DNA of 44,822 nucleotides from a virus: IMG/VR virus record IMGVR_UViG_3300027852_000012, positions 1 through 44,822 of that record; one strand, given 5' to 3'. Below, piece by piece: positions 2,046 to 39,600 of the stretch. A model generated the notes under the pieces. The model saw only the letters and a program-made list of their open reading frames with translations. It was not told where the DNA came from and did not search any database. The position numbers were made by a program, and so were the translations under genes. The stretch's first letter is position 1, and each line of letters opens with the position of its first letter.

Positions 2046-2262
2046 TGGCTCCTCCTTTCGCTTTTTTCTCTAAAGTTCTTCTTACCTGTTCCATGGCCCA
2101 ATCAAGCTTATCTTCCGGCATAGCATCCACAGCTTCATTAATAGGTGCTTCCAACTTATGGAAGTAATACATTTGCTTGAATAGATGTTGCTGTCCTTCC
2201 GTGCACTCGGCCAATCCTTCCTTTAGTTGCTTTCTCGCAAAATCTTGTAACTGATTGTTCAT
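2038..2262 (-). CDS. Small conserved-looking phage protein (74 aa), function unknown
   Basis: Start re-picked to the ATG at 2262 (MNNQLQDFARKQLKEGL...), which has the SD AAAGGAGGGAG and forms an ATGA overlap with the polymerase stop. Confidence 0.6.
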   Translation of the reverse strand: MNNQLQDFARKQLKEGLAECTEGQQHLFKQMYYFHKLEAPINEAVDAMPEDKLDWAMEQVRRTLEKKAKGGANG

Positions 2263-4475: not shown

Positions 4476-5093
4476 CTACCGCAGATGCAGTGTTTTATGT
4501 AGTTGGGTAGAGTATCTCCACTGAGGAAATTTCCTACATAGTTCCAAAGCCTCAATGCTCTTATCATAATCAGGAAACTGTTTTTTCATCCAAGGCTGGA
4601 TCCATAATACTTGTCTTGCTCTTCTCGATTCCCACATAGGCTTACCCTGCCTATCGCAGAAAGCATAAAAGGCCTTTGAAGATAACTTAACCTCATCAGC
4701 ATAAAGTAGAGCAGGAAGGTTCTTTAACATGCTGCAGGGCTTAGGACTACAAGCTAACCAAGGCAGCCAAGAGAACACAGGCGGTCTACAAGTGCCATTA
4801 GTCTCAATATGCGTATACTTACCCATACTATCCAGCTCACGTATCAGAGGAGTTACATCCTGCAATAAAGGCTCTCCACCTGTTATCATAACCCTATCTA
4901 CTTTATCATCAGCTGCCACCCTCTCAAGGATGCTGTCAACACTCATCTCAAAGCCGTCCTCATGTGCTGTATCGCACCCTAAGCAGACCAGATTACAGCC
5001 ACTAAGCCTTATAAAAGTCATAGTCTGTCCAATCCATACTCCTTCTCCACATATTGAGGTAAATATCTCATTTACTTTTAGCTCCGAAGACAT
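4476..5093 (-). CDS. queE: 7-carboxy-7-deazaguanine synthase (radical SAM)
   Basis: 205 aa. ICGEGVWIGQTMTFIRLSGCNLVCLGCDT carries a CX3CX2C cluster motif, followed by ITGGEPL. SD AAGGAGGG. Confidence 0.85.
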   Translation of the reverse strand: MSSELKVNEIFTSICGEGVWIGQTMTFIRLSGCNLVCLGCDTAHEDGFEMSVDSILERVAADDKVDRVMITGGEPLLQDVTPLIRELDSMGKYTHIETNGTCRPPVFSWLPWLACSPKPCSMLKNLPALLYADEVKLSSKAFYAFCDRQGKPMWESRRARQVLWIQPWMKKQFPDYDKSIEALELCRKFPQWRYSTQLHKTLHLR

Positions 5094-5394
5094 CTCTTCC
5101 CTCCTTTCTTATTTTGTCCAGCCTAAGCCACATGAAATAAGCATAGTTAGCCATATCTAATATTTCCCACTCTAGCTCTCTTAACAGATCAACCTGCTCA
5201 TGATGATGACTACCATACTGACCATGCCCATGCCCTCCAGAGAGTCTCTTCCCACATTGCTCAGCAAATTGGATAAATTTCTTAGCCTCTGGAATTTTTA
5301 ATTCACTGTTGCTATGTGAGGGACGGAAGGGCTCTTGAATATTGCTGCTGTCTGCATCATTCCTGCTGTCTTTACTCCCCTGATCTTCGTGCAT
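5068..5394 (-). CDS. Hypothetical protein, possibly an all-alpha MazG/NTP-pyrophosphohydrolase-like fold. The start is uncertain.
   Basis: 108-aa ORF. The ATG at 5394 has the SD GAGGAG 7 nt upstream but lies 97 nt inside folE in another frame. The C-terminal half (GHGQYGSHHHEQVDLLRELEWEILDMANYAYFMWLRL) looks like a helical NTP-PPase-type segment. It overlaps the queE start. Confidence 0.45.
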   Translation of the reverse strand: MHEDQGSKDSRNDADSSNIQEPFRPSHSNSELKIPEAKKFIQFAEQCGKRLSGGHGHGQYGSHHHEQVDLLRELEWEILDMANYAYFMWLRLDKIRKEGRDVFGAKSK

Positions 5395-5828
5395 AGGTGT
5401 TCTCCTCTTATAGTACAGTTTACATAATCACTATAGGGAATTAATAAATCCACTATCCTCTGAGTCATTCTCTCCTGCAGTGCTGGACCCTCTCGAACTA
5501 CCTCATCAATCAGCCTTGGTAGTTTGCTAAGTCCTAATACTTGGACCCTCCCAACTCCTTTTGGCTTGTAGGTGACATCTACGATAAAGACCACTGGCAA
5601 TAGGTGATGCGGACATAAGGACCATACTTCATGATTCTTGAGTGATATTATCCCAGCATACTGCTCAGGGAAGGTCTTTATCTCATTGTTGCTTTCTCCG
5701 AACATCTCCTCTAGGAAGCCTACATATCTACTTGGCGTACCTAGGTAAGGCTCTTTATTACTATCCACTCCCATTGCTGCAAGGAGTTCTTCAATTGCTG
5801 CTTCTGCTCTCTTATAATCTATTATCAT
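5298..5828 (-). CDS. folE: GTP cyclohydrolase I
   Basis: 176 aa with LCPHHLLPV and GEHLCTKIRGV (H.C...RG) motifs. SD GGAGG. Confidence 0.85.
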   Translation of the reverse strand: MIIDYKRAEAAIEELLAAMGVDSNKEPYLGTPSRYVGFLEEMFGESNNEIKTFPEQYAGIISLKNHEVWSLCPHHLLPVVFIVDVTYKPKGVGRVQVLGLSKLPRLIDEVVREGPALQERMTQRIVDLLIPYSDYVNCTIRGEHLCTKIRGVKTAGMMQTAAIFKSPSVPHIATVN

Positions 5829-9026: not shown

Positions 9027-9395
9027 TTATCTCCTCCATAATGCATAAGCGTTATCTGTTTCCCATACTTGAACGCTTTCTAGACAGATTTCTGACTCAA
9101 AAACTCCAATATCTCTAACAATCTCCCTAGCTAACTCAGCAGCAAACACCTCACAAGTAGGAAACTTCATATAATCATTGAGGCACTTGTGGTCATACTG
9201 CCGGAGTGTTGGTAGTACTAACTTATCCAGGGCTTTGAAGTCTATTACCATAGAGCCTGCTAAGGTTTGCATAGGGCCCATAGGCCCACTAACTCTCACA
9301 TCTATTTTATAAGTGTGTCCATGCATCCTCCCACAATCAGAATGTCCTGGTAGGTAGTGAGCGGAATGTATTGTATATTGCTTACCTATTATCAC
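9027..9395 (-). CDS. queD: 6-carboxy-5,6,7,8-tetrahydropterin synthase
   Basis: 122 aa with a GTG start. Motifs HSAHYLPGH...CGRMHGHTYKIDV are PTPS/QueD His motifs. Confidence 0.8.
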   Translation of the reverse strand: MIIGKQYTIHSAHYLPGHSDCGRMHGHTYKIDVRVSGPMGPMQTLAGSMVIDFKALDKLVLPTLRQYDHKCLNDYMKFPTCEVFAAELAREIVRDIGVFESEICLESVQVWETDNAYALWRR

Positions 9396-11250: not shown

Positions 11251-11895
11251 TCAGGCCTGCGCATAAGCCACGGGATCCTTCATGCCAGCGTCAGCGAAGC
11301 CCTTTAGTCGAATCTTACAGCTCTCGCATCCTCCACAGGCCTTACTGCCCATTGGACTATAGCAGCTCCACGTCTGTGAGTAGTCTACGTTCAGGTGAAA
11401 CCCAGTGCATATAATGCCCGCTTTGGACATTGTTAGTAGTGGTGCGTGTATCCTAACTGCCTTAGGACGTTCGTAGGTCTTAGCCATTTGCTCAAAGGCC
11501 CTTAGGAAATCCTCTCGACAATCAGGATAGCCACTGTAATCTATGGCATTAGCTCCGATGAAGATGTCATAGGCTCCGATAGTCTCAGCATAGCAAAGAG
11601 CCAGCGATAGGAGTATGGCATTCCGGGCCGGCACGTAGGTAGTGGGCAGACCATTCCTACAGGCTTTAGTGCCTACTAGGCTACTGCCTGCTATACTACT
11701 AAGATCCATTGTGACTAGCTTATGACTAGCTGCTAGCATCCCCTGAGTCATAGCATACCCCAGCTCTATGCTATGCATCTGTCCGTAGTTAATACTCAGC
11801 GCATAAGGTTCAAAGTCCTCCTCCTTAGCGATTGCTAATGCCGTAGCACTGTCTAAGCCGCCGGATAATAACACAATTGCTTTCGTATCGGTCAT
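11251..11895 (-). CDS. queC: 7-cyano-7-deazaguanine (preQ0) synthase
   Basis: 214 aa. PP-loop motif LLSGGLDSATA. C-terminal Zn motif CGGCESCKIR. SD AGGAGG. Confidence 0.85.
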   Translation of the reverse strand: MTDTKAIVLLSGGLDSATALAIAKEEDFEPYALSINYGQMHSIELGYAMTQGMLAASHKLVTMDLSSIAGSSLVGTKACRNGLPTTYVPARNAILLSLALCYAETIGAYDIFIGANAIDYSGYPDCREDFLRAFEQMAKTYERPKAVRIHAPLLTMSKAGIICTGFHLNVDYSQTWSCYSPMGSKACGGCESCKIRLKGFADAGMKDPVAYAQA

Positions 11896-11934
11896 GATGT
11901 TCCTCCTATTAGGCTTTTGTTTTTATATATTTAT

Positions 11935-11963
11935 ATTATAACCTCGATTATTATATAAATCAA
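11935..11963 (-). promoter_or_regulatory. Sigma70-like promoter reading leftward into queC
   Basis: On the minus strand: TTGATT, a 17-nt spacer, then TATAAT. On the plus strand these are aatcaa 11958-11963 and attata 11935-11940. It lies about 40 nt upstream of the queC ATG. Confidence 0.5.
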
Positions 11964-12064
11964 GCTTAAAATATTTAATGATTTCAACTAGTTAGAGTAC
12001 TATATCTATAACTACTTGAAATCATTGAATAAATTTAAAAACACTATATAAATCAACTAGTTAT

Positions 12065-12114
12065 AAAAACTCTAACGAAATCACATAGTTAAGAGGTATT
12101 ATTAGTTATTATTA
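12065..12114. repeat. ~50-bp direct repeat, copy A
   Basis: Copy A is aaaaactctaacgaaatcacatagttaagaggtattattagttattatta. The copy at 12520-12570 differs by about 5 substitutions or indels. Confidence 0.8.
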
Positions 12115-12219
12115 AAAAGCCTAATGAAATCAAGTAGTTACAAACTGTTATTCCTACAAACTACTTTAAGGAATACCTCTTAACTAGTTAAAATCATTAA
12201 ACTAATTAAGATTAAAAAC

Positions 12220-12245
12220 AGGTATCAGGTATTCTTTAATATATA
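12220..12245. repeat. Inverted repeat, left arm (26 nt)
   Basis: aggtatcaggtattctttaatatata equals the reverse complement of 12481-12507 apart from a 1-nt indel. The arms are 235 bp apart. Confidence 0.85.
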
Positions 12246-12341
12246 GATATATATCTAAATATATACGTATATCCCAATGATAATAGGGAAGGATGTACAA
12301 AAGGATGTGTGTAAAACTAAATAGATATCGATCACTATATG

Positions 12342-12379
<38 letters not shown>

Positions 12380-12398
12380 TTATATTATCATATTTATA

Positions 12399-12460
12399 TT
12401 CCAATATCCCAATATCCATATCCCACTATCCATATCCCACTATCCCAATATCCATATTCC
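12399..12460. repeat. Short tandem ATATCC / CTATCC-type repeats, including a 14-nt unit repeated twice
   Basis: The array reads ccaata tcccaata tccata tcccacta tccata tcccacta tcccaata tccata ttcc. The unit tccatatcccacta occurs at 12415-12428 and 12429-12442. Confidence 0.85.
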
Positions 12461-12480
12461 GATCTATAGCTTTAGCTATA

Positions 12481-12507
12481 TATATATTAAGAGAATACCT
12501 GATACCT
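12481..12507. repeat. Inverted repeat, right arm (27 nt)
   Basis: tatatattaagagaatacctgatacct is the reverse complement of the left arm at 12220-12245. Confidence 0.85.
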
Positions 12508-12519
12508 CTTAAAATTCTT

Positions 12520-12570
12520 AAAAACTCTAATAAAATCAACTAGTTAAGAGGTATTATTTAGTTATTATTA
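12520..12570. repeat. ~50-bp direct repeat, copy B
   Basis: Sequence: aaaaactctaataaaatcaactagttaagaggtattatttagttattatta. Confidence 0.8.
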
Positions 12571-12687
12571 GGTATTATTTATAATAACCTCTAACCTATT
12601 GAAATCATTAGAGTTTTTGCTAACTACTTAGAATCATTAGACTTTTTCAAAGAACTCCTCCACTACCTACACAACTCCTAATCCACC

Positions 12688-12849
12688 CTACCTATTCCTA
12701 ACTATCTTAGTATTTACAACATCCTCACCATCCCAACATATACTCTCCATTCTATAACTCAAACTCCTCTCACTTAACATCTTCTCTATCAACATCTCCA
12801 CTTCTTCAACATTATCTTCATCCAACTCTATAGTTATAGTCTTTCTCAT
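12688..12849 (-). CDS. Early small acidic protein (53 aa), C-depleted coding
   Basis: Not in the ORF track. SD AGGAGGG, then ATG. Sequence: MRKTITIELDEDNVEEVEMLIEKMLSERSLSYRMESICWDGEDVVNTKIVRNR. Confidence 0.5.
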   Translation of the reverse strand: MRKTITIELDEDNVEEVEMLIEKMLSERSLSYRMESICWDGEDVVNTKIVRNR

Positions 12850-12860
12850 ATCACACCCTC

Positions 12861-13007
12861 CTAATTATTAACATACTCAACTTCTGTACCACTAACTAAC
12901 TCCACATCTTCAAAACACTCAATCATTAAATCCACCAACTTCTCTAACTTCAATATTTTCTCCCAAGACTCATCCTTTAACTTTAACTTAATCCTTAGTT
13001 CATACAT
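12861..13007 (-). CDS. Early small protein (48 aa), C-depleted coding
   Basis: Not in the ORF track. SD AGGAGGATG, then ATG. Sequence: MYELRIKLKLKDESWEKILKLEKLVDLMIECFEDVELVSGTEVEYVNN. Confidence 0.45.
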   Translation of the reverse strand: MYELRIKLKLKDESWEKILKLEKLVDLMIECFEDVELVSGTEVEYVNN

Positions 13008-13028
13008 ATTACATCCTCCTATTCAAAT

Positions 13029-13283
13029 TTATTCTCCAAACAACACCTTACCTAACAACTCTACTAAATCTCCAACACAAGTCCACTTATCCTCTCCTAA
13101 ATTATCTAATACTACATCCATCTCCTTAACTAACAACTTCCTCTTCTCCTTAGTTACACTCTCATCAATTAATCCCTCCAACCCTACCATCACATCTTCT
13201 TTACAAAACCACATATCATCTCCCCAAAAACGATTTCTCAACACTTTCCTTAATTTTCTCATCAACAACAACTCTTTAGTCAT
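13029..13283 (-). CDS. Early small protein (84 aa), C-depleted coding
   Basis: Track ORF with the SD AAGGAG. The protein has no Pro, His, Gln or Ala at all. Confidence 0.6.
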   Translation of the reverse strand: MTKELLLMRKLRKVLRNRFWGDDMWFCKEDVMVGLEGLIDESVTKEKRKLLVKEMDVVLDNLGEDKWTCVGDLVELLGKVLFGE

Positions 13284-13314
13284 ATCACAATCTCCTTATC
13301 TTATGATTGTAAGA

Positions 13315-13355
13315 GGGAAGGAATACATAGTTCTATCCACTACATATTCCTTCCC
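13315..13355 (-). promoter_or_regulatory. 11-bp-stem hairpin in the only G/C-balanced island of the early cassette
   Basis: gggaaggaata (13315-13325) pairs with tattccttccc (13345-13355) around a 19-nt loop. It sits in the intergenic gap between two early ORFs. Confidence 0.45.
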
Positions 13356-13378
13356 ATTATACACTATTCCACTATACA

Positions 13379-13537
13379 CTACCCCTTCAACTTCTCTAAC
13401 AATTCCTCCAATTCACTCAATTGATCCATTGTATCTTTCTCATCTACTAATTCCTCATCCAAATCATTATACAAACATTCCATAGTATTCTCCAAACTCT
13501 CTCTTAACAATACTACTTCCCTATCATCTAAATCCAT
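13379..13537 (-). CDS. Early small highly acidic protein (52 aa), C-depleted coding
   Basis: Not in the ORF track. SD GGAAGGAGGTG. Sequence: MDLDDREVVLLRESLENTMECLYNDLDEELVDEKDTMDQLSELEELLEKLKG. Confidence 0.5.
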   Translation of the reverse strand: MDLDDREVVLLRESLENTMECLYNDLDEELVDEKDTMDQLSELEELLEKLKG

Positions 13538-13581
13538 ACTACTTCACCTCCTTCCCTTCCATATTCCCAACTTCCAACTTC

Positions 13582-13743
13582 CTACATCAATCCTCTCTCT
13601 TTACATAATGATTCCAATTCCTTCCTCTTAAGATTCCTCTTCCTATTATATTCCTTCCTTTTCTCAATCTCAATCCTTCTCTTCTCTACGAACAACTGTA
13701 ATTCCTCATCACTATAATCTTTAACATCCTTATTCATAGTCAT
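13582..13743 (-). CDS. Early small basic coiled-coil-like protein (53 aa), C-depleted coding
   Basis: Not in the ORF track. SD TGGAGGATTG. Sequence: MTMNKDVKDYSDEELQLFVEKRRIEIEKRKEYNRKRNLKRKELESLCKERGLM. Confidence 0.5.
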   Translation of the reverse strand: MTMNKDVKDYSDEELQLFVEKRRIEIEKRKEYNRKRNLKRKELESLCKERGLM

Positions 13744-13793
13744 ATCACAATCCTCCATTAATTAATTAGTTATACAAGCTAACTTATAATCTT

Positions 13794-13822
13794 ATTATAA
13801 TATGGATTTATAATAATATCAA
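13794..13822 (-). promoter_or_regulatory. Near-consensus sigma70-like promoter reading leftward into the early cassette
   Basis: On the minus strand: TTGATA, a 17-nt spacer, then TATAAT. On the plus strand these are tatcaa 13817-13822 and attata 13794-13799. It lies about 50 nt upstream of the first early ATG at 13743. Confidence 0.55.
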
Positions 13823-13826
13823 CATT

Positions 13827-13894
13827 AAAAACTTCAATAATATTACATAGTTATAAAGATATACTTATAACTATATAGAATTATTGAAGTTTTT
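13827..13894. repeat. 68-nt AT-rich palindrome (15-bp plus 10-bp stems) directly abutting the early promoter -35
   Basis: aaaaacttcaataat (13827-13841) pairs with attattgaagttttt (13880-13894). Inner atagttataa (13847-13856) pairs with ttataactat (13865-13874). Confidence 0.8.
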
Positions 13895-13932
13895 ATTTGA
13901 TATTGGGTAGGCATATATAGATAGTTAGTATG

Positions 13933-13996
13933 TAGATAGATAGTAGGCAGATAGAACTACCATACATAGATAGATAGTAGGTAGATAGTATTACCA
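13933..13996. repeat. Two tandem ~31-bp direct repeats spaced 33 bp apart
   Basis: tagatagatagtaggcagatagaactaccat (13933-13963) and tagatagatagtaggtagatagtattaccat (13966-13996). This is a local purine-rich island inside a pyrimidine-rich strand. Confidence 0.8.
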
Positions 13997-14257
13997 TCCA
14001 CACTAAGTTAGTTCCTCCTACCTTCTTACCCACCACTAACATAGTTAAACCATCACAACTTAGTTAGTACTATCTAACTTCTCTCACTACTCCTTCCTTC
14101 CTACCTACTCTCTACCTAACTACTACCATCCTACAGAAGATAGGTCCACCTAACATTATCACACAATCCTACCCCCCCACCATCACAAAACCATCCCCAT
14201 ATCATCGTCATTACCTGCTTTCGGAATATATCCACTGTGGAGGATAATGTTGATTGA

Positions 14258-14291
14258 GGGCCAAATGGGCCAGTGGGCCAGTGGGCCAAAT
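14258..14291. repeat. Four tandem GGGCCA(A/G)(A)T repeats about 80 nt upstream of terS (candidate pac or terminase-recognition site)
   Basis: The run reads gggccaaat gggccagt gggccagt gggccaaat. A further aggccaatat lies at 14317-14326. Confidence 0.75.
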
Positions 14292-14332
14292 ATCCGATTA
14301 TAAATTGTTGGTCTTAGGCCAATATATGTTGG

Positions 14333-14361
14333 TTGCTTACTAAGGCTAAATAGGCTATAAT
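14333..14361 (+). promoter_or_regulatory. Sigma70-like promoter positioned to give a leaderless terS mRNA
   Basis: TTGCTT (14333-14338), a 17-nt spacer, then TATAAT (14356-14361). The ATG at 14368 is 7 nt after the -10. terS is the only well-supported CDS here without any SD. Confidence 0.4.
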
Positions 14362-14367
14362 AATAAC

Positions 14368-20739: not shown

Positions 20740-21006
20740 ATGAACTATCAACTATTAACAAACCTATGGAAGTTTAAAACGCCTAATAAGATTGCGGTAC
20801 GTTGTGGGTCCTGCCATAGGCTATTAAGTTTAAAACAGTGTCTCAAGGGTGGCTGCAAATGTGGTCACCGTGAGATGCGTGAAGCAAGATGCCTAACTTT
20901 AAGGGAGAGATTTAAGATTAAATTTTTAGGTTTTAAGCCGGCCTTAGCAGATGGTGATGTGGGCAAGAGATTAGACACACCTAGGGATATGGGAGGTGTT
21001 CAATGA
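20740..21006 (+). CDS. Zn-ribbon-like small protein (88 aa)
   Basis: RCGSCHRLLSLKQCLKGGCKCGH has a CxxC...C...CxC pattern. SD GAGGAGG. Confidence 0.55.
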   Translation: MNYQLLTNLWKFKTPNKIAVRCGSCHRLLSLKQCLKGGCKCGHREMREARCLTLRERFKIKFLGFKPALADGDVGKRLDTPRDMGGVQ

Positions 21007-22349
21007 AAAAAAGGGTGATGATTGGAATACCTGCTTTTGCTGGTGTTGATGGAGAGATACTTGAGGACCTTATGTGCTTAGCCTTTCATCTTGGCAGGCG
21101 AGAGCCTGAGTATGACTTCTTCCTTAAGGTGATTAGCAAGAAGGAACAGTTCAGGGCTAGGAACTTCCTAGTCAATATGGCCTTGGCTGGTGGCATGGAT
21201 TATCTTTGGATGTTGGATGATGATATGGTCATTCCTCCTAATGCCTTCAGTCGATTAATAGCTCATGGTAAGGAAGTTACGGGGGCCCTATACTATCAAA
21301 GAACACATCCTTATAATCCTGTTATGCTTAGAGCTATTAAAGGAGCCAGAGGTACTGTCAGGCATGAGTGGATTCACGACTTCAAGAGGGGTCTAATACC
21401 TGTGGATGTTATTGGTGGCGGGTGTATGTTATTTGATATGAAGGTGTTTAAGAATATGCCCGAGCCTTACTTCTGGATTGATGGAATAATTGGTACTGAT
21501 ATCTACATATGTACTAGGCTAAAGGAGTTAGGATATCAGCCCTACTGTGATACTACTCTGGAGTTAGGTCATCTGGGAGAGAGGCAAGTAGTTACTGGTA
21601 ATGACATGTCTGTTAGCGTACGTAAGTTCGGGAGCTATGCTGCGGAGTTTGTTAGTGATGTTCAGGAATACTTACATATGACTCCTGATATGTATGAGGA
21701 GAAAGTCTCTTATGCTATAGCATCTAGGGAGGTGGTGTGGAATAGCAAGAAGCGTGGGACTCCAGAGGAGATTGCTAGTTATTACCGGGAGCAGGGAGCA
21801 ATGAATATTTTGAGCTGGAGTTGGTATAATACTCAGGATAAGTGGTCAAGGGACTTCTACCCACAATTCATGGAGGCTACTTGGTTGAAGGCACTAGGAG
21901 TTAAGAAGATATTGGAGTTTGGTTGTGGGCTTAGTCTTCTGGGGGTGTCGCTATGTCAGCAAGGCTTTGAGTTAACCTGTGCTGATCTTCCTAATGTTGC
22001 AACTATGGACTTTGCTAAGTGGAGAGCTAAGAAGTATGATATAGCATCTAGGTTTATTGACTTGCTCCACGGAATACCTGCCTGCGGTAAGCAAGATGCT
22101 ATTATGCTATTTGATGTAATTGAGCATCTGCCTGATCCCTGGAATACTCTTAATAAGCTTATGCTACTACTAAATTCAAAGGGGGTGATAATAACAGATG
22201 CCCATATGAAGACCTTTGCAGGTGCTGAGCAAGGATCACCGCAGCACCTAAAGCGCTATGATAGAGATACCTTTGCTTTAGATTTATGTAAGAAGTTCAA
22301 TATGGTACAAAGTTTAAATAATCCTTATTTATTTAGGAGGGCAACATAA
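21003..22349 (+). CDS. Fusion of a GT2-like glycosyltransferase (N-terminal) and a class I SAM-dependent methyltransferase (C-terminal)
   Basis: GT-A features: LWMLDDDMVIPPNAF and GGGCMLFD. Methyltransferase motif I ILEFGCGLSLLG, acidic residue after beta-2 in TCADL, and motif IMLFDVIEHLPDP. Confidence 0.7.
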   Translation: MKKRVMIGIPAFAGVDGEILEDLMCLAFHLGRREPEYDFFLKVISKKEQFRARNFLVNMALAGGMDYLWMLDDDMVIPPNAFSRLIAHGKEVTGALYYQRTHPYNPVMLRAIKGARGTVRHEWIHDFKRGLIPVDVIGGGCMLFDMKVFKNMPEPYFWIDGIIGTDIYICTRLKELGYQPYCDTTLELGHLGERQVVTGNDMSVSVRKFGSYAAEFVSDVQEYLHMTPDMYEEKVSYAIASREVVWNSKKRGTPEEIASYYREQGAMNILSWSWYNTQDKWSRDFYPQFMEATWLKALGVKKILEFGCGLSLLGVSLCQQGFELTCADLPNVATMDFAKWRAKKYDIASRFIDLLHGIPACGKQDAIMLFDVIEHLPDPWNTLNKLMLLLNSKGVIITDAHMKTFAGAEQGSPQHLKRYDRDTFALDLCKKFNMVQSLNNPYLFRRAT

Positions 22350-22540
22350 TGGGAACACAAGAGAGAACAATTGTTTGTATGGCGATAAGAGTTATTAAGA
22401 AAGTAGGTCTGTTAGATATGTTAAAGAAGGCCGCTGAAAAGACTGAGAATGGAGCTGATGACATGGTTGTCTCTTTGCTCATTAGCGCGATTGAGATGGC
22501 CGATACGGTGATTTGTCAAGCAGAGGAGACAAATCTATGA
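22349..22540 (+). CDS. Hypothetical protein (63 aa)
   Basis: SD AGGAGGG. TAATG overlap upstream and ATGA overlap downstream. Confidence 0.5.
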   Translation: MGTQERTIVCMAIRVIKKVGLLDMLKKAAEKTENGADDMVVSLLISAIEMADTVICQAEETNL

Positions 22541-22905
22541 CAATACTAAGAATTATAAAGAAGACGGCTATGGTGGTGTGTGTTGTACTACTACTTGCCC
22601 CGTTTGTGTTTGGCCTACCACATACCAATAGCTATAAGGCAGTATGGGATGCCAATACTGAAACAGATTTGGCTGGATACTACCTTTATTGGAGAGTGGT
22701 TGATGGAGTATTTATTGCTACAGATAAAATTGATACTCAGCTCATTACTGAGTGTGACCTCTCTGCTGTGCCTTCTGATACTATACTAGCAGTAACAGCT
22801 TATGATACATCAGGGAATGAATCGGGATACAGTAACGAAGTAAATTTTACGAAGGACCTCTTGGCCCCGGCTGCACCAGGTGGTCTACAGATAGCAGTCG
22901 AATAA
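22537..22905 (+). CDS. Signal-peptide (or N-anchored) fibronectin-type-III-like protein (122 aa)
   Basis: Start re-picked to the ATG at 22537, with the SD GAGGAG. Signal-like N-terminus MTILRIIKKTAMVVCVVLLLAPFVFG. FN3-type signature WDANTETDLAGYYLYWR...VTAYDTSGNESGYSNEV. Confidence 0.6.
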   Translation: MTILRIIKKTAMVVCVVLLLAPFVFGLPHTNSYKAVWDANTETDLAGYYLYWRVVDGVFIATDKIDTQLITECDLSAVPSDTILAVTAYDTSGNESGYSNEVNFTKDLLAPAAPGGLQIAVE

Positions 22906-22931
22906 TAAGAATAGAATGGTGAGGAGGTAGT

Positions 22932-23141
22932 ATGGAGCACAAACAAACCTTTAAGGTGTTCGTAAAGCCCGGGTGAGGTAAATGCACTAGACTGGTCAGT
23001 CAGTACGATGGTTGTGAAATTTACAATACAGATTCCCCTGAAGGACTTGCGGAGGCCTCCTATTATGGTATTAGTAGAGTTCCTGCCGTAGTCTGTCTTA
23101 ATGAGCATGATCAGCAGCTTTGGAAGAAAATAGCCTTATAA
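22932..23141 (+). CDS. Thioredoxin-fold (Thioredoxin_3 / glutaredoxin-like) protein with an in-frame TGA at the first redox Cys. It is either a candidate selenoprotein (UGKC) or a nonsense pseudogene.
   Basis: Not in the ORF track. Strong SD GGTGAGGAGGTAGT, then ATG. Sequence: MEHKQTFKVFVKPG[TGA]GKCTRLVSQYDGCEIYNTDSPEGLAEASYYGISRVPAVVCLNEHDQQLWKKIAL. Only the joined reading gives the beta-alpha CxxC and G..vPa.v thioredoxin pattern. Confidence 0.5.
22978..23024 (+). promoter_or_regulatory. Candidate bacterial SECIS-like stem-loop directly downstream of the in-frame TGA
   Basis: GUAAAU (22978-83) pairs with AUUUAC (23019-24). CAC (22985-87) pairs with GUG (23014-16). Apical ACUG (22991-94) pairs with CAGU (23001-04) around the loop GUCAGU, which starts about 21 nt after the UGA. 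Folded by eye only. Confidence 0.3.
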
Positions 23142-23154
23142 GTGAGGATGAATA

Positions 23155-25524
23155 GTGAAAAGATTAGTTTGGTTTTGTTGGCTGTTGTTAGTGATTGGAG
23201 CTCTGGTTAGTGGTATGCGAGGAACTGCTGTGGCAGATACTGCTAGCAATGATTATTGCATTGGATATCTTGACGATGATACTGATTGTGAGCCGGTATT
23301 TGCTGGTGCTACTTGGCCTGCGACTGCACTCAGAACTTATGTTAGAAAATGGATAGCTACAACGGATGGGGTGGTTGAAAGAGTTCATCACAGATTTGGG
23401 GCTGATATCACACATGCAGGGTGTAAGGCCGTGGTATTTGAAGGAGTGACAATGAAGGCTTCTGTGGCTTTAACCCCTGTTGCTAACAGCTGGGTTTGGA
23501 GTGATGCGTTAGTCGCGAAAGACGGACAATCATTGAGTTTTGAGGAAGGGGACGAATTATATTTTGGGGTCACTGTAACCCCTGATCCTAGTATTCACTA
23601 TGCGTACAAAACAGCAGGAACAAATTTTTATTTAGCTAGTGTTTATGACGATGATCCTTTGAACTGGAGTTATTCTGCTATAAATCTAGCCACTATATTA
23701 GAATACTCAGTAGGGATTTCAGATGTTTATACCGAAACGTTTTATATGTCAGCGGCCGGAGATGCCTCCGCTCCTGAAACGGTAGCTGGGGCCTGGGATC
23801 TGAGCGATGTGAATACAGCAGGAAATTGGGCCGCTGTTGACTCGGATGATGGGAAACTGGGGCCGAATGATAGATTGATTGTATTGGATGATGACGGAGT
23901 ATTTAGGGGAGAACTAGAGATTCAGCAATCTGGGCTTATCACTAAACCTATTACAATAGTTGCAGAGGAAGGAGGTACACCGACTTTCTATGGTTCCCAG
24001 GATTATGATAGCGTTGGGCAATGGAATGATTTAGGTGCTAATCTATGGGCAACTGCTAACAGCACTTTTGCCGTTGATGTTGGGTTTATCCTTTTTGGAG
24101 TAGAAGCGCAAAATAGCGTAGGGACTAAGGTAGAGGCACAAGTGGATTTAAATGCCCTTCGGGAGTTTTTCCATGACACCGTCAATGATAGGGTGATTAT
24201 CTATTCAACGGCAAATCCTTCTGGTTTAGCTAATGGAATTGAGATAGCCTACTCCCCTAACGATCAATATGATTATCTGCTTCAAATATATGATAAGGAT
24301 TACATTACTATAGATGGACTTACACTAAAATATTTTAATCCTCATGGTGTACAGGTATCTAGGTGTAAAGGCATCACGCTTCAGAATATGCAGGTTAGTT
24401 ATGGGGGAGGCCAGTATCTTGCTGGCACTACTAGGTATGGGAACGGTATTGAGTTTTGGTGTCATACAGAGGATGTTGTTTGTGATAATAACACAGTAAC
24501 ACAAATATTCGACGCAGCTATCTCAGTACAGATTTCAGGAGCTGGGTGCGATGATTGCATAAGGGATAATATTAGAATAAGGAATAATACCGTTAGTTAT
24601 TCCGGGGCTGGCATCACCTATATTCAATCTGCGGGTGGGACAACTGCTGATGATGATATTTTAATTTCATTAAATACTATTTCAAATAGTGGGCAAGGAT
24701 GGAGTGGGACGGATACTAACGAACATTGTTCTGGGGCGGAGTTAAATAAAACATCCACAGGTACATTGACTAATTTTCTTTTCTCTCGTAACACTATTGA
24801 TGTATGTGGTCCCTATGAAGATCCATTGGGTGGCTTAGGAATCATGACTCAAGGTGGTGCATTTGATATTAAGTGGAATAAGATTTCAAATACTATGAAT
24901 TGCGGGATACGTGCCACTGAGGCTGGTGGGGAGCAGTATAGTGGGGATATTATTGGGAATTTAATTATTGATACCGATAAAGACGGGGTTTGGGTAACTA
25001 ATGCTACGGATGAAGCAAATCCGGGAACACTTAATATCTTGAATAATACCATTTACGATGTAGCAGCAGCCTCCATTGGCTTTGACCTAGATGCTAATGT
25101 AGATAAGGTTAATTTTAAAAATAACATCATTAATACTGGGGCAGCAGCAAGAGCTATATGGGTAAGTCCTGATGCTACAAATTTAGATTTTGATTACAAC
25201 CTCTACAACAACACCGAGGGGGAACTTGTTAAATGGCAAGGAACTGCTTATACAATAGCAGAATGGGAGGATTATAAAACCGCTACATCACAAGATACCA
25301 ATTCCTTAACTCCTGGTGTGGCCCAGTTCAAGGATGCTGCGGGTGGAGATTTTAGTTTACGTTGGACTTCTCCTTGTATAGATGCCGGAGTGAATGCGGG
25401 GGTTACAGAGGATTATGCGGGTAAGGCTACTCCTATTAGAGGAGCTTTTGATATAGGAGCTTTTGAAGTATATAGAGAGGTTTGGTTTAAACGTCTTTTA
25501 CATAGATTAGGTTTAGGATTGTAA
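23155..25524 (+). CDS. Right-handed parallel beta-helix (pectate-lyase-like) protein with an N-terminal signal/anchor sequence. It is a possible tailspike/depolymerase or a secreted glycanase.
   Basis: 789 aa with a GTG start and SD GAGGA. N-terminus MKRLVWFCWLLLVIGALVSGMRGTAVA. Repeated NNT/NNI beta-helix turns (NNTVTQ, NNTVSYSGAGI, NNTIYD, NNIINTG). C-terminal ...GAFDIGAFEV. Confidence 0.6.
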   Translation: MKRLVWFCWLLLVIGALVSGMRGTAVADTASNDYCIGYLDDDTDCEPVFAGATWPATALRTYVRKWIATTDGVVERVHHRFGADITHAGCKAVVFEGVTMKASVALTPVANSWVWSDALVAKDGQSLSFEEGDELYFGVTVTPDPSIHYAYKTAGTNFYLASVYDDDPLNWSYSAINLATILEYSVGISDVYTETFYMSAAGDASAPETVAGAWDLSDVNTAGNWAAVDSDDGKLGPNDRLIVLDDDGVFRGELEIQQSGLITKPITIVAEEGGTPTFYGSQDYDSVGQWNDLGANLWATANSTFAVDVGFILFGVEAQNSVGTKVEAQVDLNALREFFHDTVNDRVIIYSTANPSGLANGIEIAYSPNDQYDYLLQIYDKDYITIDGLTLKYFNPHGVQVSRCKGITLQNMQVSYGGGQYLAGTTRYGNGIEFWCHTEDVVCDNNTVTQIFDAAISVQISGAGCDDCIRDNIRIRNNTVSYSGAGITYIQSAGGTTADDDILISLNTISNSGQGWSGTDTNEHCSGAELNKTSTGTLTNFLFSRNTIDVCGPYEDPLGGLGIMTQGGAFDIKWNKISNTMNCGIRATEAGGEQYSGDIIGNLIIDTDKDGVWVTNATDEANPGTLNILNNTIYDVAAASIGFDLDANVDKVNFKNNIINTGAAARAIWVSPDATNLDFDYNLYNNTEGELVKWQGTAYTIAEWEDYKTATSQDTNSLTPGVAQFKDAAGGDFSLRWTSPCIDAGVNAGVTEDYAGKATPIRGAFDIGAFEVYREVWFKRLLHRLGLGL

Positions 25525-25533
25525 GGAGGTATT

Positions 25534-25803
25534 ATGTCGGTTAATATTATTAGGAGTAAGTATTGGAGGCTTCAAGTAGCAGGAAGGATTACGGATAAGC
25601 CTGTTACTATTGCTCACGCAGTATGGTCTGGAGTAGGTACTGATGGGGATGATCTTGTCATTACTGACTTAAGTGGTGATAAGAGAACTACTCGTAAAGG
25701 TGTTTGTGGTCTTGATACTCTTATATGGCCTGGATTAGCTAGTCAAGAAGGCTTTATCTTGGCTACTCTTGATTCAGGTACACTTGAAGTCGAACTTGCT
25801 TAG
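25534..25803 (+). CDS. Hypothetical structural-module protein (89 aa)
   Basis: SD AAGGAGG. Confidence 0.55.
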   Translation: MSVNIIRSKYWRLQVAGRITDKPVTIAHAVWSGVGTDGDDLVITDLSGDKRTTRKGVCGLDTLIWPGLASQEGFILATLDSGTLEVELA

Positions 25804-25816
25804 AAAGGAGGTAGTT

Positions 25817-26083
25817 ATGAGTCTCACTATTAGAGAAAGGAATCTATTATCTTCTGTAGATTCTGATGGTCTTAGAAAGCCTTTGCACTGGTTTGAAACC
25901 TTTATTAATGCGCAGCAGTACATGGAGCCTAGGCCTATGTCTGTTATTAACGCTGATGGAGTTGATGCTGAGGTGGGGTTTAATAGAATAGTGGAAGTAA
26001 TGCCTGAGCTATACTATGGCACAGATACGGATGTGGCATCCACAGCAAAAGCAACTGGTGGTATTCTTGCCCCGCTAACCTAG
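25817..26083 (+). CDS. Hypothetical structural-module protein (88 aa)
   Basis: Start re-picked to the ATG at 25817, with the SD AAAGGAGG. Confidence 0.5.
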   Translation: MSLTIRERNLLSSVDSDGLRKPLHWFETFINAQQYMEPRPMSVINADGVDAEVGFNRIVEVMPELYYGTDTDVASTAKATGGILAPLT

Positions 26084-35739: not shown

Positions 35740-36606
35740 ATGCCAGATACGGGTGTTAATATTGGATCACAATTACTGCAGGGATTCGTACAAGGGAAGA
35801 AAATAAAACTTGAGCAAGATAGATTGAAGCAGGAATCTAAGACTCAGGAAGAGCTCACCACTCATAGAACTAGATTGTGGGAGTTGCAGGAGAAGCAGCT
35901 ACAGCAAGGCCAAGCCCAACATGAAGATATGATGCAATATAGAGGAGAGGAGTTAGAGGTTAGACGAGAGGGTACTGAAGCTACTAAGGCCTACCGTGAG
36001 GAAACTATCAAGCTGAAAGATACCTATCAACAAGTTCTCAATATGTATAATGAGCAAAGGCTAGGAGCACAGAGAGCCACTGCTGTCTCTGGAGCTATTG
36101 GAGATTACTCCGATGCTGTCATGACTGCTTATAGTAAGGAATTAGAAATGGGCCCTGTCGGAGTACAGCAAGCCCTAGCTACTGCTAAGCAAGCTCTATC
36201 CAATCAGTTAGCTGTTCTCGGTCTTGATGAGGAGGAGATGGAAGGCATTATGAATCAGTCAGCTATCTTTGATCAGTTATTTGGTCAAGAGCAGGAGCAA
36301 GGAGGCGCTGCTACCGGAGGTCCTCCTGCTGAGCAGGCTGGCACGTTAGATAGAGTTAGAAGTGCTATGTCAGGCGTACCAGAAAGAGGAATGACTGGGG
36401 ATGTGTGGTCTGGCTTGAAAGGTATGATGGGTAGTATGCCTTCAGATGATGACGTCTGGGATATGTATCTTGATGGTGCCTTCGGAGCTAAGCCTACTGG
36501 TCCTGATGATACTCCTGTTAATCCTCCTGAGAGAGAAGCTATGAAAAACGCTCAGAAGTATCTTGCTAACATTAAGGCAATGAGAGGTGGCAATGCCGGA
36601 CAGTAA
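35740..36606 (+). CDS. Internal-virion-type coiled-coil protein (288 aa)
   Basis: SD GGGAGGTGG. Gln/Glu-rich helical composition. It precedes the giant protein, as in podovirus ejection-protein sets. Confidence 0.45.
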   Translation: MPDTGVNIGSQLLQGFVQGKKIKLEQDRLKQESKTQEELTTHRTRLWELQEKQLQQGQAQHEDMMQYRGEELEVRREGTEATKAYREETIKLKDTYQQVLNMYNEQRLGAQRATAVSGAIGDYSDAVMTAYSKELEMGPVGVQQALATAKQALSNQLAVLGLDEEEMEGIMNQSAIFDQLFGQEQEQGGAATGGPPAEQAGTLDRVRSAMSGVPERGMTGDVWSGLKGMMGSMPSDDDVWDMYLDGAFGAKPTGPDDTPVNPPEREAMKNAQKYLANIKAMRGGNAGQ

Positions 36607-39600
36607 AGGACGTAAGATGCTAATGGAGGGATCTGTTACTACTGAAAGATCCCATCTTACCAATACTCTTAAGCAAGTTCAAAGCAAGAAGCGGCTTGGT
36701 GAAATAATGCGGAGGCATAAGATTGTTCAATCCATCGGCCTAGATAAGCCTGTTAGTCCTTGGGAGGTAATGCCCCAGGATCTTAGGGGTTTATGGAAGG
36801 AGGAACATTCCAAGCCTGGTCCTGTTGTTCACAAGGTCAGAGGCGGGAAGACACTAGCCGCCCCTGAGACGTTACGTCCTGCAGGAAGTAGGGAGGATGT
36901 AATACAGTCAGTAAGGAAGTTTTTGAAAACTGAAGCTGAGCCTGCTGCCCTTAGACCTACTACTCCAAAGCCAACAAAGGCCACTAGGCTATTACCTAAG
37001 ACTGAGGGAGCTAAGACTGTCCTGAAGCAGGAGCCTTGGAATGAGCTCTTTTGGAAGTTGCAGACTAAGGCCAATAAGGCTAAGGCGCCAGAGGAGTACC
37101 TCAAGACCCAGCTTAGGAGGTTTATTAATATGGGCGAGAGGTTTGCTAAGCAGTGGCCTGCTCAAGCTAAGTGGTTTAAGAATGCTGCCGGCGGTAGAGG
37201 AAAGCTAGGTATTGCTGCTGCTACGGCTGGCCTGGCTGCTTATGAGATGATGAGACCTGAAGAAGCTGAGGCTAAGATACCTAGGCTAAGTGCTACACAG
37301 TTATCTACCATGGGAAGGCTACTAGAGAGCTTACCAGAGAAGTTTACCTTTAAAGAAGGTGTAAATGTTGCTAGGCAGCAGCTCAGCCTAAGAAGTATGG
37401 TTGATGCTGACCCAGTGGCTCCTCTCGATAAAATACTTAAAACTTTAGAATACACTGGGGATATTAAGGTAGCAAACATGGGAAATTATCTCCCAGGCAG
37501 AACATTTGAAAAGGGGCTAGGGGCTATAACTAGAACTTTTAGAGAGCACCTAGAGACAGGAAAAGAGCTTCAGAGTCTCTATAAGATACACGTAGGCATT
37601 CCTAAGATTCCTGTTTCGAAAAGGGAAACACAAATTGCCCTGCTCAAGCAGGCTTACAGAGTTGGAAAAGCTACATATCGTCCTAAAGAGAGAGCTGTAT
37701 CTACCACAGTCGACAAGCTTGTAAGAGCCGCTGCAGGCACTTTTGGGCGACCAGTAACCGCTACGGAACTACTTAAGAGAGGATATGTTAGAGGAGGAAG
37801 AAGTCTTATAGAACCTCTAATTAGGGACATTCCAGGAGGGCGTAAGTTCACCATTAAAGCACGAACTATAACCAACTTAGCTAAGAGATGTACTGAGGAT
37901 GCTGTGCAAGGTACTCGGGGCCTATCTTTAAATCGAGTAACACGCCGACCAGAATCGGTTGTGATGCCTCTTTCTAAGTTTCGTGACCCTCATTGGTTTT
38001 ACTATGAGACTAGCACTCAAGATATTCTTGGTCGCTCAGTTTCTAAAGAAGAAGTTTGGGAAAAAACTAGTGAGAAAGTTTTGCAGAAGCTAATAAAGAA
38101 TGGAGACGTTGAGGTACTTAAGGGCTCGGCAGCAACTGAAACTAGGCTCTCTTTTGAGCCCTATGTTAGAAAGCAATTAGCTATACCCATTAATGAAGAA
38201 TTGCTTCGAGAGGCTACTAGAACTTCTGAAGTTCGTATATTAGAGGCAGCTAGTGAAGGAATAGAGTCCTTAGATCATATGTTTGCTGGGTCTAATTTAC
38301 TTTATCGACTACAACATTATGGAATAAGACCTCCTAAAGCTATTAAGGACTCCGCAATAGCTACAGCCCGTGTTACCAAATTAACTATAGACAAGTTGAT
38401 AGAACAAGGACTGTTAAGTAAGGAGGCTGGCCGACTAACTGCTGGTCCTCAACTACGTCCTATTATAGCTGAGCACAGAGCCTTAAAAGCAGCTGAGCAA
38501 GCCAAGCTTAGAAAGGGAGTCTTAGACTCTCTAACTCCAGCTGCTTCTCCTCTTGAGGACTTCTTATCTAGAGCAGAGAAGGCTCTCCCTGAAGGCATAT
38601 CTGCTAAAGAGTTTAAGCGTAAGTACCCTTCAGCTGTTGCTAAGTACAAGGAGTACTTTACTGAGTGGTTTCAGAAAGGCAGAATAGAGCCACAGGATGT
38701 AGCGGCTCTTCGACATAAAGTTGGAGATATTAAATACAGAGTTGGTTGGACAACACCTGACAGTGTAGTATCTTCTGGAGAGCTTACTGCGATACCTGAC
38801 GGCTCTAAGATGTTCATGAGAGTAACTGCTGATATTCCTTACTTAGATAGAGTCTTTAAGAAATACCCTGATATTGCTCATGCGCATGCTCCTCCCTACA
38901 CTCTTGAGAATAAGGTGCCTACTCTTGGTTGGTTTAAAATATACCCACGCACAAAAAGCAAGATGTGGTACATTGAAGAGATTCAATCCGATATGCTTTC
39001 CAAGATAGATCAAGCAATACGTAAACCAAAAACAAAAGAGGCAGATATCGCTGCTCTCAAAGATCTGCGTAAGCGCTATGAGGATTGGGCTGACTATGGC
39101 TTAGCTACTGTTATGAAAGAAGCAAGAAAGAATGATATTCAATATGTTTCTATGATAACAGATAAGTCTGTGCAGGACTTGTGGAAGGGTGTCCTAGGAG
39201 AGAAGAAAGCTAAACAGTTCTATAAGGACCTACCTAAGAGAATGGGCTTTAGCGCCGAGGAGACCTCTCTCAAAGCACTTGATCCACAACTGAGTTCAGA
39301 GGTCCTCACAAGAGGCAGAGTGCCCTCTATACTATTTGCGCTAGGCACAGGTACAGCAGCAGCCACACTCCTTGATAAGGAAGCTGAGGCCTCTACAGGT
39401 AAGCAACAATTACTAGGAGGATCGCCGCAACCCACCGCAGAGCCGCCCTTGTCACTTCCTCCGGCTGAAAGCTCTGGGAAGCGGCTGTTCCTCTCTAGTG
39501 CTACTGAGGAGCAAATAGCAGAGGAACAATCCAAGATACCAGAATGGACAGAGGAGGAGCTGGAGGAATATGGCGAGATATATCAAGCAGCACCACCTAA

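Follow-up and report, generated by a model that had tools for sequence, protein, structure and literature searches.

The selenoprotein families known from bacteria include selenocysteine (Sec) thioredoxins and glutaredoxins with a UxxC active site (PF00085, PF00462) and the thioredoxin-like families Sec.1 and Sec.2 (PF13192) (PMC13188914). In Escherichia coli fdhF, the essential part of the Sec insertion sequence (SECIS) is a 17-nt upper stem-loop located 11 nt from the UGA, with a conserved U17 and with G23 and U24 contacted by SelB (PMC8659212). Among viruses, the only selenoproteins given in a 2021 review of recoding are two poxvirus glutathione peroxidases, from molluscum contagiosum virus and fowlpox virus (PMC8310308). 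Basilisk-like Bacillus phages carry a predicted tRNASec gene and no selenoprotein gene (PMC6145125), and the words phage and virus are absent from a 2026 review of the prokaryotic selenoproteome (PMC13188914). In the literature searchable here, which does not cover all journals, we found no phage-encoded selenoprotein, only the tRNASec of Basilisk-like phages and unusual phage tRNAs. Here we describe a 69-codon thioredoxin-fold gene at positions 22932-23141 (+ strand) of the tailed-phage record IMGVR_UViG_3300027852_000012, all 44,822 nucleotides of which were analyzed (hereafter, the window), and propose that its one internal TGA codon is quite probably decoded as Sec.

A thioredoxin-fold gene with one internal TGA

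The gene fills a gap of 249 nt between the end of the upstream gene at 22905 and the start of the downstream gene at 23155. A Shine-Dalgarno region, GGTGAGGAGG (22918-22927, +), lies 4 nt 5′ of the ATG at 22932, from which the frame reads MEHKQTFKVFVKPG, then the TGA at 22974-22976, then GKCTRLVSQ...WKKIAL, and ends at the TAA at 23139-23141 (+), 13 nt 5′ of the GTG of the next gene. This layout is the one given in a preliminary description of the locus, which had pointed to the strong Shine-Dalgarno sequence, the in-frame TGA and the terminal TAA. In the proposed product, MEHKQTFKVFVKPG-U-GKC...WKKIAL, the TGA is the codon of residue 15, the first position of the U-G-K-C motif; the resolving cysteine of the UxxC is residue 18 (TGC, 22983-22985, +), and a conserved proline, residue 51 in a V-P pair (CCT, 23082-23084, +), occupies the position of the cis-proline loop of the thioredoxin fold. 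Because no in-frame ATG, GTG or TTG follows the TGA, and no + strand open reading frame (ORF) with its own ATG, GTG or TTG lies in the part 3′ of it, those 54 codons cannot form a gene of their own. The A at 22976, which the preliminary description had singled out for verification, is the same in an independent Logan assembly of run SRR5248754, where 10,754 nt, TGA included, are identical to the window. The public Joint Genome Institute (JGI) protein for this gene has the full 69 aa with W at the TGA, although TGA ends neighboring genes in that set of calls; the Logan gene calls have nothing at this place.

A search with the 789-aa protein encoded downstream identified a second phage contig, IMGVR_UViG_3300027852_000011 (L002), with a 76%-identical homolog of that protein. 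A homolog of the small gene lies at positions 899-1106 of L002 and reads MQTYKVFTKPG-TGA-SKCDGLVSQ...; its protein is 62% identical to that of the window, and the TGA stands at the same alignment column in both. A copy identical to the L002 gene was found on a 10-kb contig (L003) from the window's own sample. Thus, the only close homolog (L002/L003, 62%) has TGA at this codon and not the TGC or TGT that the preliminary description had proposed as a sign of an error or a private mutation.

Comparison of the two genes showed differences at 26 of ∼37 synonymous sites and at 26 of ∼146 nonsynonymous sites (Fisher p = 2e-9 overall). Downstream of the TGA, the proportions of changed synonymous and nonsynonymous sites (pS and pN) were 0.63 and 0.19, with a ratio of nonsynonymous to synonymous substitution rates (dN/dS) of 0.16 (p = 5e-6); upstream of it, all synonymous sites had changed (pS ∼1) with a pN of 0.11 (p = 3e-5). 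Purifying selection in both halves implies that both are translated in one frame, and a neutral TGA would be expected to survive the divergence between the two genes with a probability of only ∼0.03-0.05. The Shine-Dalgarno sequence, start, stop and tight packing between neighbors are intact in both copies. We conclude from these sequence comparisons that the TGA has been conserved and that it is translated as part of one frame. The shared TGA together with purifying selection rules out a private nonsense mutation and a sequencing error, and comes close to refuting a shared pseudogene.

The L002 gene ends in a second TGA (1104-1106; CCC GGG TGA), 4 bases 5′ of the next ATG, and CCG GGA stands before its internal TGA; the 40 nt 3′ of the terminal TGA contain no GGTC. 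With an internal and a terminal TGA, TGA would be read in two ways in one gene, depending on context.

Cysteine-containing relatives of the product are abundant. A phmmer search of 1.84 billion representative proteins returned two genuine small homologs, with the motifs VFVRPGCPKC and VFVKPDCPKC, and ten other matches that were rejected as spurious, being long repetitive proteins. A profile search identified 1,120 homologs, mostly of 87 aa and annotated as PF13192 or PF00462 (Thioredoxin_3/MJ0307-like). All of the 120 best-scoring of these carry CxxC at the column of the TGA (CPMC, CPKC or CPLC in 114), and the sole sequence without CxxC among those inspected was the window's own record. Cysteine also occupies this column in the 10 metagenome or viral loci and the 13 genome loci that were fetched. 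Cysteine forms occur in metagenome-assembled genomes (MAGs) of Syntrophaceae, Syntrophorhabdaceae, Desulfomonilaceae, Thermodesulfobacteriota, Actinobacteria and several archaea, and the FTKPGCGKCD of Desulfomonilaceae and Thermodesulfobacteriota MAGs is very near the FTKPG-U-SKCD of the phage. The TGA stands in for the catalytic cysteine of a large CxxC family. The preliminary description had held that the two halves belong to one protein, and they are co-linear here as in all cellular homologs inspected; the two kinds of homolog that it had suggested looking for at this column, Cys-containing and TGA-containing, were both found. Two properties used to recognize selenoprotein genes are present, namely a UGA that aligns with Cys in homologs and a UGA that is itself conserved with coding conservation on both sides, the latter in two independent lineages only.

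No further TGA form was recovered. Two degenerate DNA patterns over the TGA (FxKPG-TGA-xKC and TGA-xKC-xx-CTGGTCAG) matched in IMG/VR only the two known contigs and otherwise by chance; one metagenome scan and one genome scan returned many Cys forms and no TGA form; a search for close relatives of the joined protein returned only the window's own JGI protein; GenBank phages gave no match by DNA or protein; and a scan of viral contigs with the single protein gave no confirmed match.

The protein is predicted to adopt a thioredoxin fold. Its best viral family match is PHROG 22, "thioredoxin domain" (E = 1.6e-5), and the family profile matches the solved thioredoxin-fold proteins 1a8l, 1j08, 1fo5 and 1nho with the active sites aligned. 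An AlphaFold2 model (mean confidence, pLDDT, of 82) contains beta1 (residues 6-11), the U-G-K-C turn, alpha1 (18-24), beta2, alpha2, beta3 and beta4, and the top Foldseek matches to this model are thioredoxins (TMq 0.62-0.71). The redox motif, U15-G-K-C18, is placed between beta-1 and alpha-1, and C18, a GLAEA motif and P51 are invariant in the alignments (C18 and P51 in both of two).

A compact hairpin and the decoding it would support

A SECIS-like hairpin, ACU(A)GACU[GGUC]AGUCAGU, follows the TGA at 22986-23004 (+), with an RNAfold minimum free energy (MFE) of −4.3 kcal/mol. It consists of a lower stem (22986-22988/23002-23004), a bulged A (22989), an upper stem (22990-22993/22998-23001) and the loop GGUC (22994-22997). 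With the U of the UGA as nt 1, RNAfold and RNAalifold place a 4-bp stem with a GGUC loop at nt 17-28 in both the window and L002; the loop occupies nt 21-24, with a spacing of 17 nt from the TGA. In the window, pair 18/27 is A-U; L002 has G-C there, which makes one compensatory change. The window hairpin extends to nt 13-31 through an unpaired A and three more pairs. Of the 1,579 TGA trinucleotides in the window, only 2 have a 4-bp stem with a GGUC loop at this distance, and such a hairpin is absent from 17 Cys homologs. Conservation of the encoded residues, L-V-S, does not extend to the Cys forms, which is the pattern that a constraint from the RNA on the protein would be expected to produce. 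An alternative hairpin of the window, ACUG[GUCAGU]CAGU, was rejected, as it is not conserved in L002.

The preliminary description had drawn a nested stem-loop 4-50 nt downstream of the TGA. Of this, the small hairpin at nt 13-31 with its GGUC loop stands, and the nested +4 to +50 stem does not, since it belongs to a weak multibranch fold that L002 does not share. The lack of a conserved stem-loop in homologs, which it had named as an argument against Sec, was not found, since L002 keeps the 4 bp and the GGUC loop at the same distance. An Infernal SECIS model and RNAfold, the tools that it had recommended, gave no Rfam match and a weak hairpin, respectively.

The published criteria for a bacterial SECIS (bSECIS) are an apical loop of 3-9 nt, an upper stem of at least 4 bp, a G among the two leading loop nucleotides, a UGA-to-loop spacing of 16-37 nt, and an MFE of at most −7.5 kcal/mol (PMC13188914). 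The geometry of both genes (GGUC loop, 4-bp stem, 17-nt spacing) agrees with three of the four published criteria. Several observations weigh against decoding as Sec. The hairpins, at −4.3 kcal/mol in the window and −4.9 kcal/mol in L002, do not reach the bSECIS stability threshold of −7.5, and the folds are not more stable than shuffled sequences (z between +0.2 and +1.7 for lengths of up to 67 nt, and −0.10 for the 102-nt fold); the 67-nt folds, at −8.7 kcal/mol (window) and −6.0 kcal/mol (L002), are not conserved. The unpaired base at the foot of the stem is A or G and not the U required by E. coli SelB, and a single pair in two sequences provides all of the covariation. Several Cys homologs also have generic bSECIS-like hairpins of comparable energy, so that the generic criteria discriminate poorly. 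No Rfam SECIS family matched 22850-23200 at E ≤ 10, with models that cover only particular gene or lineage groups. On the protein side, the AlphaFold2 model lacks the C-terminal helix of the 87-aa relatives, and the single protein falls under the PF13192 cut-off (16 bits versus 24.8); it also scores 14-18 bits against TIGR00411, for which the cut-off is 92.75, and matches no NCBIfam selenoprotein model at cut-off. Finally, the TGA-bearing sequences comprise only two independent ones, which probably share one environment.

Taking these points together with the conserved TGA, the selection on both sides of it and the Cys homologs, we consider it quite probable that the gene encodes a phage UxxC selenoprotein decoded via a compact SelB-type hairpin. 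The product would be a 69-residue thioredoxin-fold thiol-disulfide oxidoreductase with the active site U-G-K-C, in which the attacking residue is selenocysteine. In an infected Sec-using bacterium, host SelB with GTP and Sec-tRNASec would bind the hairpin 17 nt 3′ of the UGA, the recognition element being the 4-bp stem, the GGUC tetraloop and the unpaired base at its 5′ foot, and SelB would then deliver Sec to the UGA in place of release factor 2. The phage would provide the mRNA signal only, the remaining Sec machinery coming from the host. We infer that the inserted residue is Sec and that the host carries selA, selB, selC and selD. Of the two explanations that the preliminary description had left side by side, the Sec-containing redox protein is supported by the shared TGA, purifying selection, Cys homologs and conserved hairpin, and the TGC-to-TGA pseudogene is contradicted by purifying selection on both sides of the TGA.

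Other readings of the TGA and its use as a stop codon

One alternative explanation is that the UGA is read through without Sec, with insertion of Trp by a near-cognate tRNATrp, of Cys by a tRNASec-like tRNACys(UCA), or of Gly or Trp in a host that uses code 25 or 4, which would give a WxxC, GxxC or CxxC protein. The weakness of the hairpin as proof of SelB recruitment is compatible with this explanation, as is the report that Deltaproteobacteria have a tRNACys that mimics tRNASec (PMC5389517). The W in the JGI protein record could also be cited in its favor; however, that letter is not evidence for Trp. A code 4 or 25 host is made very unlikely by the use of TGA elsewhere in the window: the 39 ORFs stop at TAA (23), TGA (8) and TAG (8), and most of the TGA-ended genes have a backup stop 1-4 codons on or an ATGA overlap. 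The four ATGA junctions at 17977, 21003, 22537 and 31623, from which the preliminary description had argued that TGA is an ordinary stop here, are gene end/start boundaries in public gene calls and, with the eight TGA-ended genes, bear that argument out. An internal TGA occurs in no other window gene (∼12,000 codons), so the pattern diagnostic of genome-wide reassignment is absent. Other code-4 ORFs in intergenic gaps were considered as a second recoded gene and rejected, because either their strand is wrong or the TGA comes only at the end of the ORF. With TGA as the stop of 8 of 39 ORFs and a single internal TGA, genome-wide reassignment of TGA in this phage is excluded. The window also has no suppressor tRNA. 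Moreover, Trp or Gly at the position of the attacking Cys would abolish the chemistry implied by the invariant CxxC of the family, and a TGY codon would suffice for plain Cys, yet TGA has been kept over near-saturating divergence. We therefore regard read-through without Sec as unlikely.

A second alternative is that a TGC or TGT changed to TGA in a common ancestor and that both copies are now decaying. The gene is dispensable, as judged from its absence from six related phage lineages, and most gene callers skip it (the Logan contig has no gene at this place), as might be expected of a pseudogene. However, the codons on either side of the TGA are under strong purifying selection, neither copy has acquired an additional stop or a frameshift although synonymous sites are near saturation, the expression signals and the packing against the neighbors are preserved in both, and the TGA itself is unchanged despite its low expected neutral survival. 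A shared pseudogene is accordingly very doubtful.

Third, only the 14 codons up to the TGA might be translated, as a leader peptide, with the rest untranslated or serving as an RNA element. A short ORF with a strong Shine-Dalgarno sequence and a normal stop codon would fit this idea, but the 54 downstream codons are under purifying selection in frame; in full-length thioredoxin-like proteins, residues 16-69 are homologous to these codons and beta-1 to the 14 upstream ones; and no Rfam RNA family matched. This makes a leader peptide still less credible. A sequencing or assembly error at 22976, favored only by the prior that single-base errors occur, is practically excluded by the identical SRR5248754 assembly and by the same TGA in a diverged homolog on two other contigs. 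Even taken together, the pseudogene, leader-peptide and sequencing-error readings are improbable.

The phage, its late-gene module and known systems

The window corresponds to JGI contig JGI24724J26744_10000222 from sample 3300002180 and is a tailed-phage genome of ∼45 kb with 43% G+C, encoding terminase, portal, major capsid protein, SU10-type adaptor, family A DNA polymerase and exonuclease. No tRNA gene and no Rfam match at the gathering score were found in it. In family scans, which covered 33 of the 39 window ORFs, neither a Sec-pathway family nor ribonucleotide reductase was detected. The capsid and polymerase proteins are only 25-28% identical to those of the nearest isolated phages, whose hosts differ widely. 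Related metagenomic phages carry murein hydrolases (Peptidase_M15_4, Phage_lysozyme), and strong GGAGG sites precede many window genes; together, these features indicate that the host is likely a bacterium.

Several other features of the genome were recorded. Four genes on the − strand (4476-5093, 5298-5828, 9027-9395 and 11251-11895) form a preQ0/7-deazaguanine set of a radical-SAM QueE-like protein, GTP cyclohydrolase I, 6-pyruvoyl-tetrahydropterin synthase (QueD) and QueC, which suggests that the phage modifies the guanines of its own DNA; no search for a DpdA transglycosylase was made. The family A DNA polymerase (2259-4466, −) has an N-terminal uracil-DNA-glycosylase-superfamily domain (PF03167, E = 9e-30) followed by 3′-5′ exonuclease and polymerase domains. 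The largest window gene (36587-42283, +) encodes 1,898 aa with no Pfam match and 2 cysteines (0.11%). Between the divergent early (−) and late (+) blocks lie 2.5 kb (11896-14367) without an ORF of at least 90 aa, where JGI calls several genes of 48-84 aa.

In both carriers, the thioredoxin-like gene is followed by genes for long proteins whose N-termini are hydrophobic; most of these proteins have 12-13 cysteines, and two in the L002 cluster are Cys-rich. In the window this is the 789-aa protein encoded at 23155-25524 (+), which has a hydrophobic N-terminus, 13 Cys and only a sub-threshold Pfam match to DUF5123; in L002 there are proteins of 589, 538 and 492 aa in addition to the 789-aa homolog. 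We speculate that these adjacent Cys-containing proteins are clients of the thioredoxin-like enzyme. Contigs of nine capsid relatives were also fetched, of which L034-36 end too early to be informative. The thioredoxin-like gene and the adjacent long proteins are absent from the six related lineages that cover the region (L037-41, counted as one, L042, L046, L047, L072 and L073; major capsid 47-65% identical), which run from the capsid genes to the adaptor gene, in five of them via glycosyltransferase/methyltransferase genes. This absence indicates that the thioredoxin-like gene belongs to a variable late-gene module. The module spans 22349-26083, from the glycosyltransferase/methyltransferase gene to the adaptor gene, where relatives (L037-L041, L046, L072, L073) have one or two small genes; in the window it holds genes for 63-aa, 130-aa (fn3-like), putative Sec-thioredoxin and 789-aa proteins and small ORFs. 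Next to it, among the head genes, the gene at 21003-22349 (+) encodes 448 aa in which a glycosyltransferase-like N-terminal half (PHROG 12406/Anp1-like) is fused to a class I methyltransferase domain; relatives have a separate gene for each. None of 97 capsid matches lies on a contig of 45,089 nt, the length of L002. What L002 has in common with the window phage may therefore be limited to the thioredoxin and tail-protein module, a pattern that would suggest modular exchange.

If the Sec reading is correct, selenoprotein genes travel via phages, and their in-ORF bacterial SECIS makes them portable. The host range of such a phage could be tied to Sec utilization, which could serve as a marker for host prediction, and the phage would exhibit a new kind of viral dependence on a non-universal host trait (SelB, tRNASec and selenium). 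A hairpin of 12-19 nt would suffice as a natural SECIS and would provide a test case for minimal SelB recruitment. Because gene callers skip such genes (Logan) or mistranslate them (JGI, with W), viral selenoproteins may be systematically missed.

The redox chemistry and the decoding mode proposed here are of a known kind. As in the bacterial Sec thioredoxins and glutaredoxins, the gene combines a thioredoxin fold, Sec in place of the attacking Cys, in-ORF decoding and Cys homologs that far outnumber the Sec forms; in contrast to them, it is phage-encoded, has 69 aa and lacks the C-terminal helix. Its motif is U-G/S-K-C, whereas the listed PF13192 selenoproteins have CxU and UxC (PMC13188914). 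The hairpin likewise resembles the fdhF SECIS, whose sequence we confirmed in 5,419 E. coli genomes and which folds at −14.9 kcal/mol in RNAfold. The fdhF element has GCA[GGUC]UGC at nt 19-28, in which the loop takes up nt 22-25, and U17 is bulged above additional pairs; its upper stem has three pairs in the RNAfold fold, and U18-A29 makes a fourth. Both elements present GGUC on a 4-bp upper stem with an unpaired 5′ base directly below, and the window copy also has lower pairs, with the register shifted by one nucleotide (loop at nt 21-24 here versus 22-25). Unlike fdhF, the phage hairpins have A or G at the foot instead of U17, no long lower helix and folding energies of −4.3 and −4.9 versus −14.9 kcal/mol, and binding of SelB is here a prediction only.

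Known phage thioredoxin- and glutaredoxin-like proteins of the T4 NrdC type use Cys and usually accompany ribonucleotide reductase. The gene described here resembles such PHROG 22 proteins in encoding a small CxxC-type redox protein of a phage, and differs from them in lying in the late structural region of a genome in which the family scans detected no ribonucleotide reductase. Like the poxviruses with glutathione peroxidase (GPx) homologs, the phage would be a virus with a selenoprotein gene from the cellular pool that needs the Sec machinery of its host; the poxvirus cases involve eukaryotic hosts, a eukaryotic SECIS and the GPx fold, whereas this one involves a tailed phage, a bacterial in-ORF signal and a thioredoxin fold. 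The Basilisk-like phages have tRNASec without a selenoprotein gene and the window has a putative selenoprotein gene without a tRNA, and both link phages to the Sec system. Set against these systems, the locus is rather likely to represent the first selenoprotein gene found in a virus of prokaryotes, a tailed-phage UxxC thioredoxin-fold gene with its own compact SECIS and a late gene that would depend on the Sec machinery of the host.

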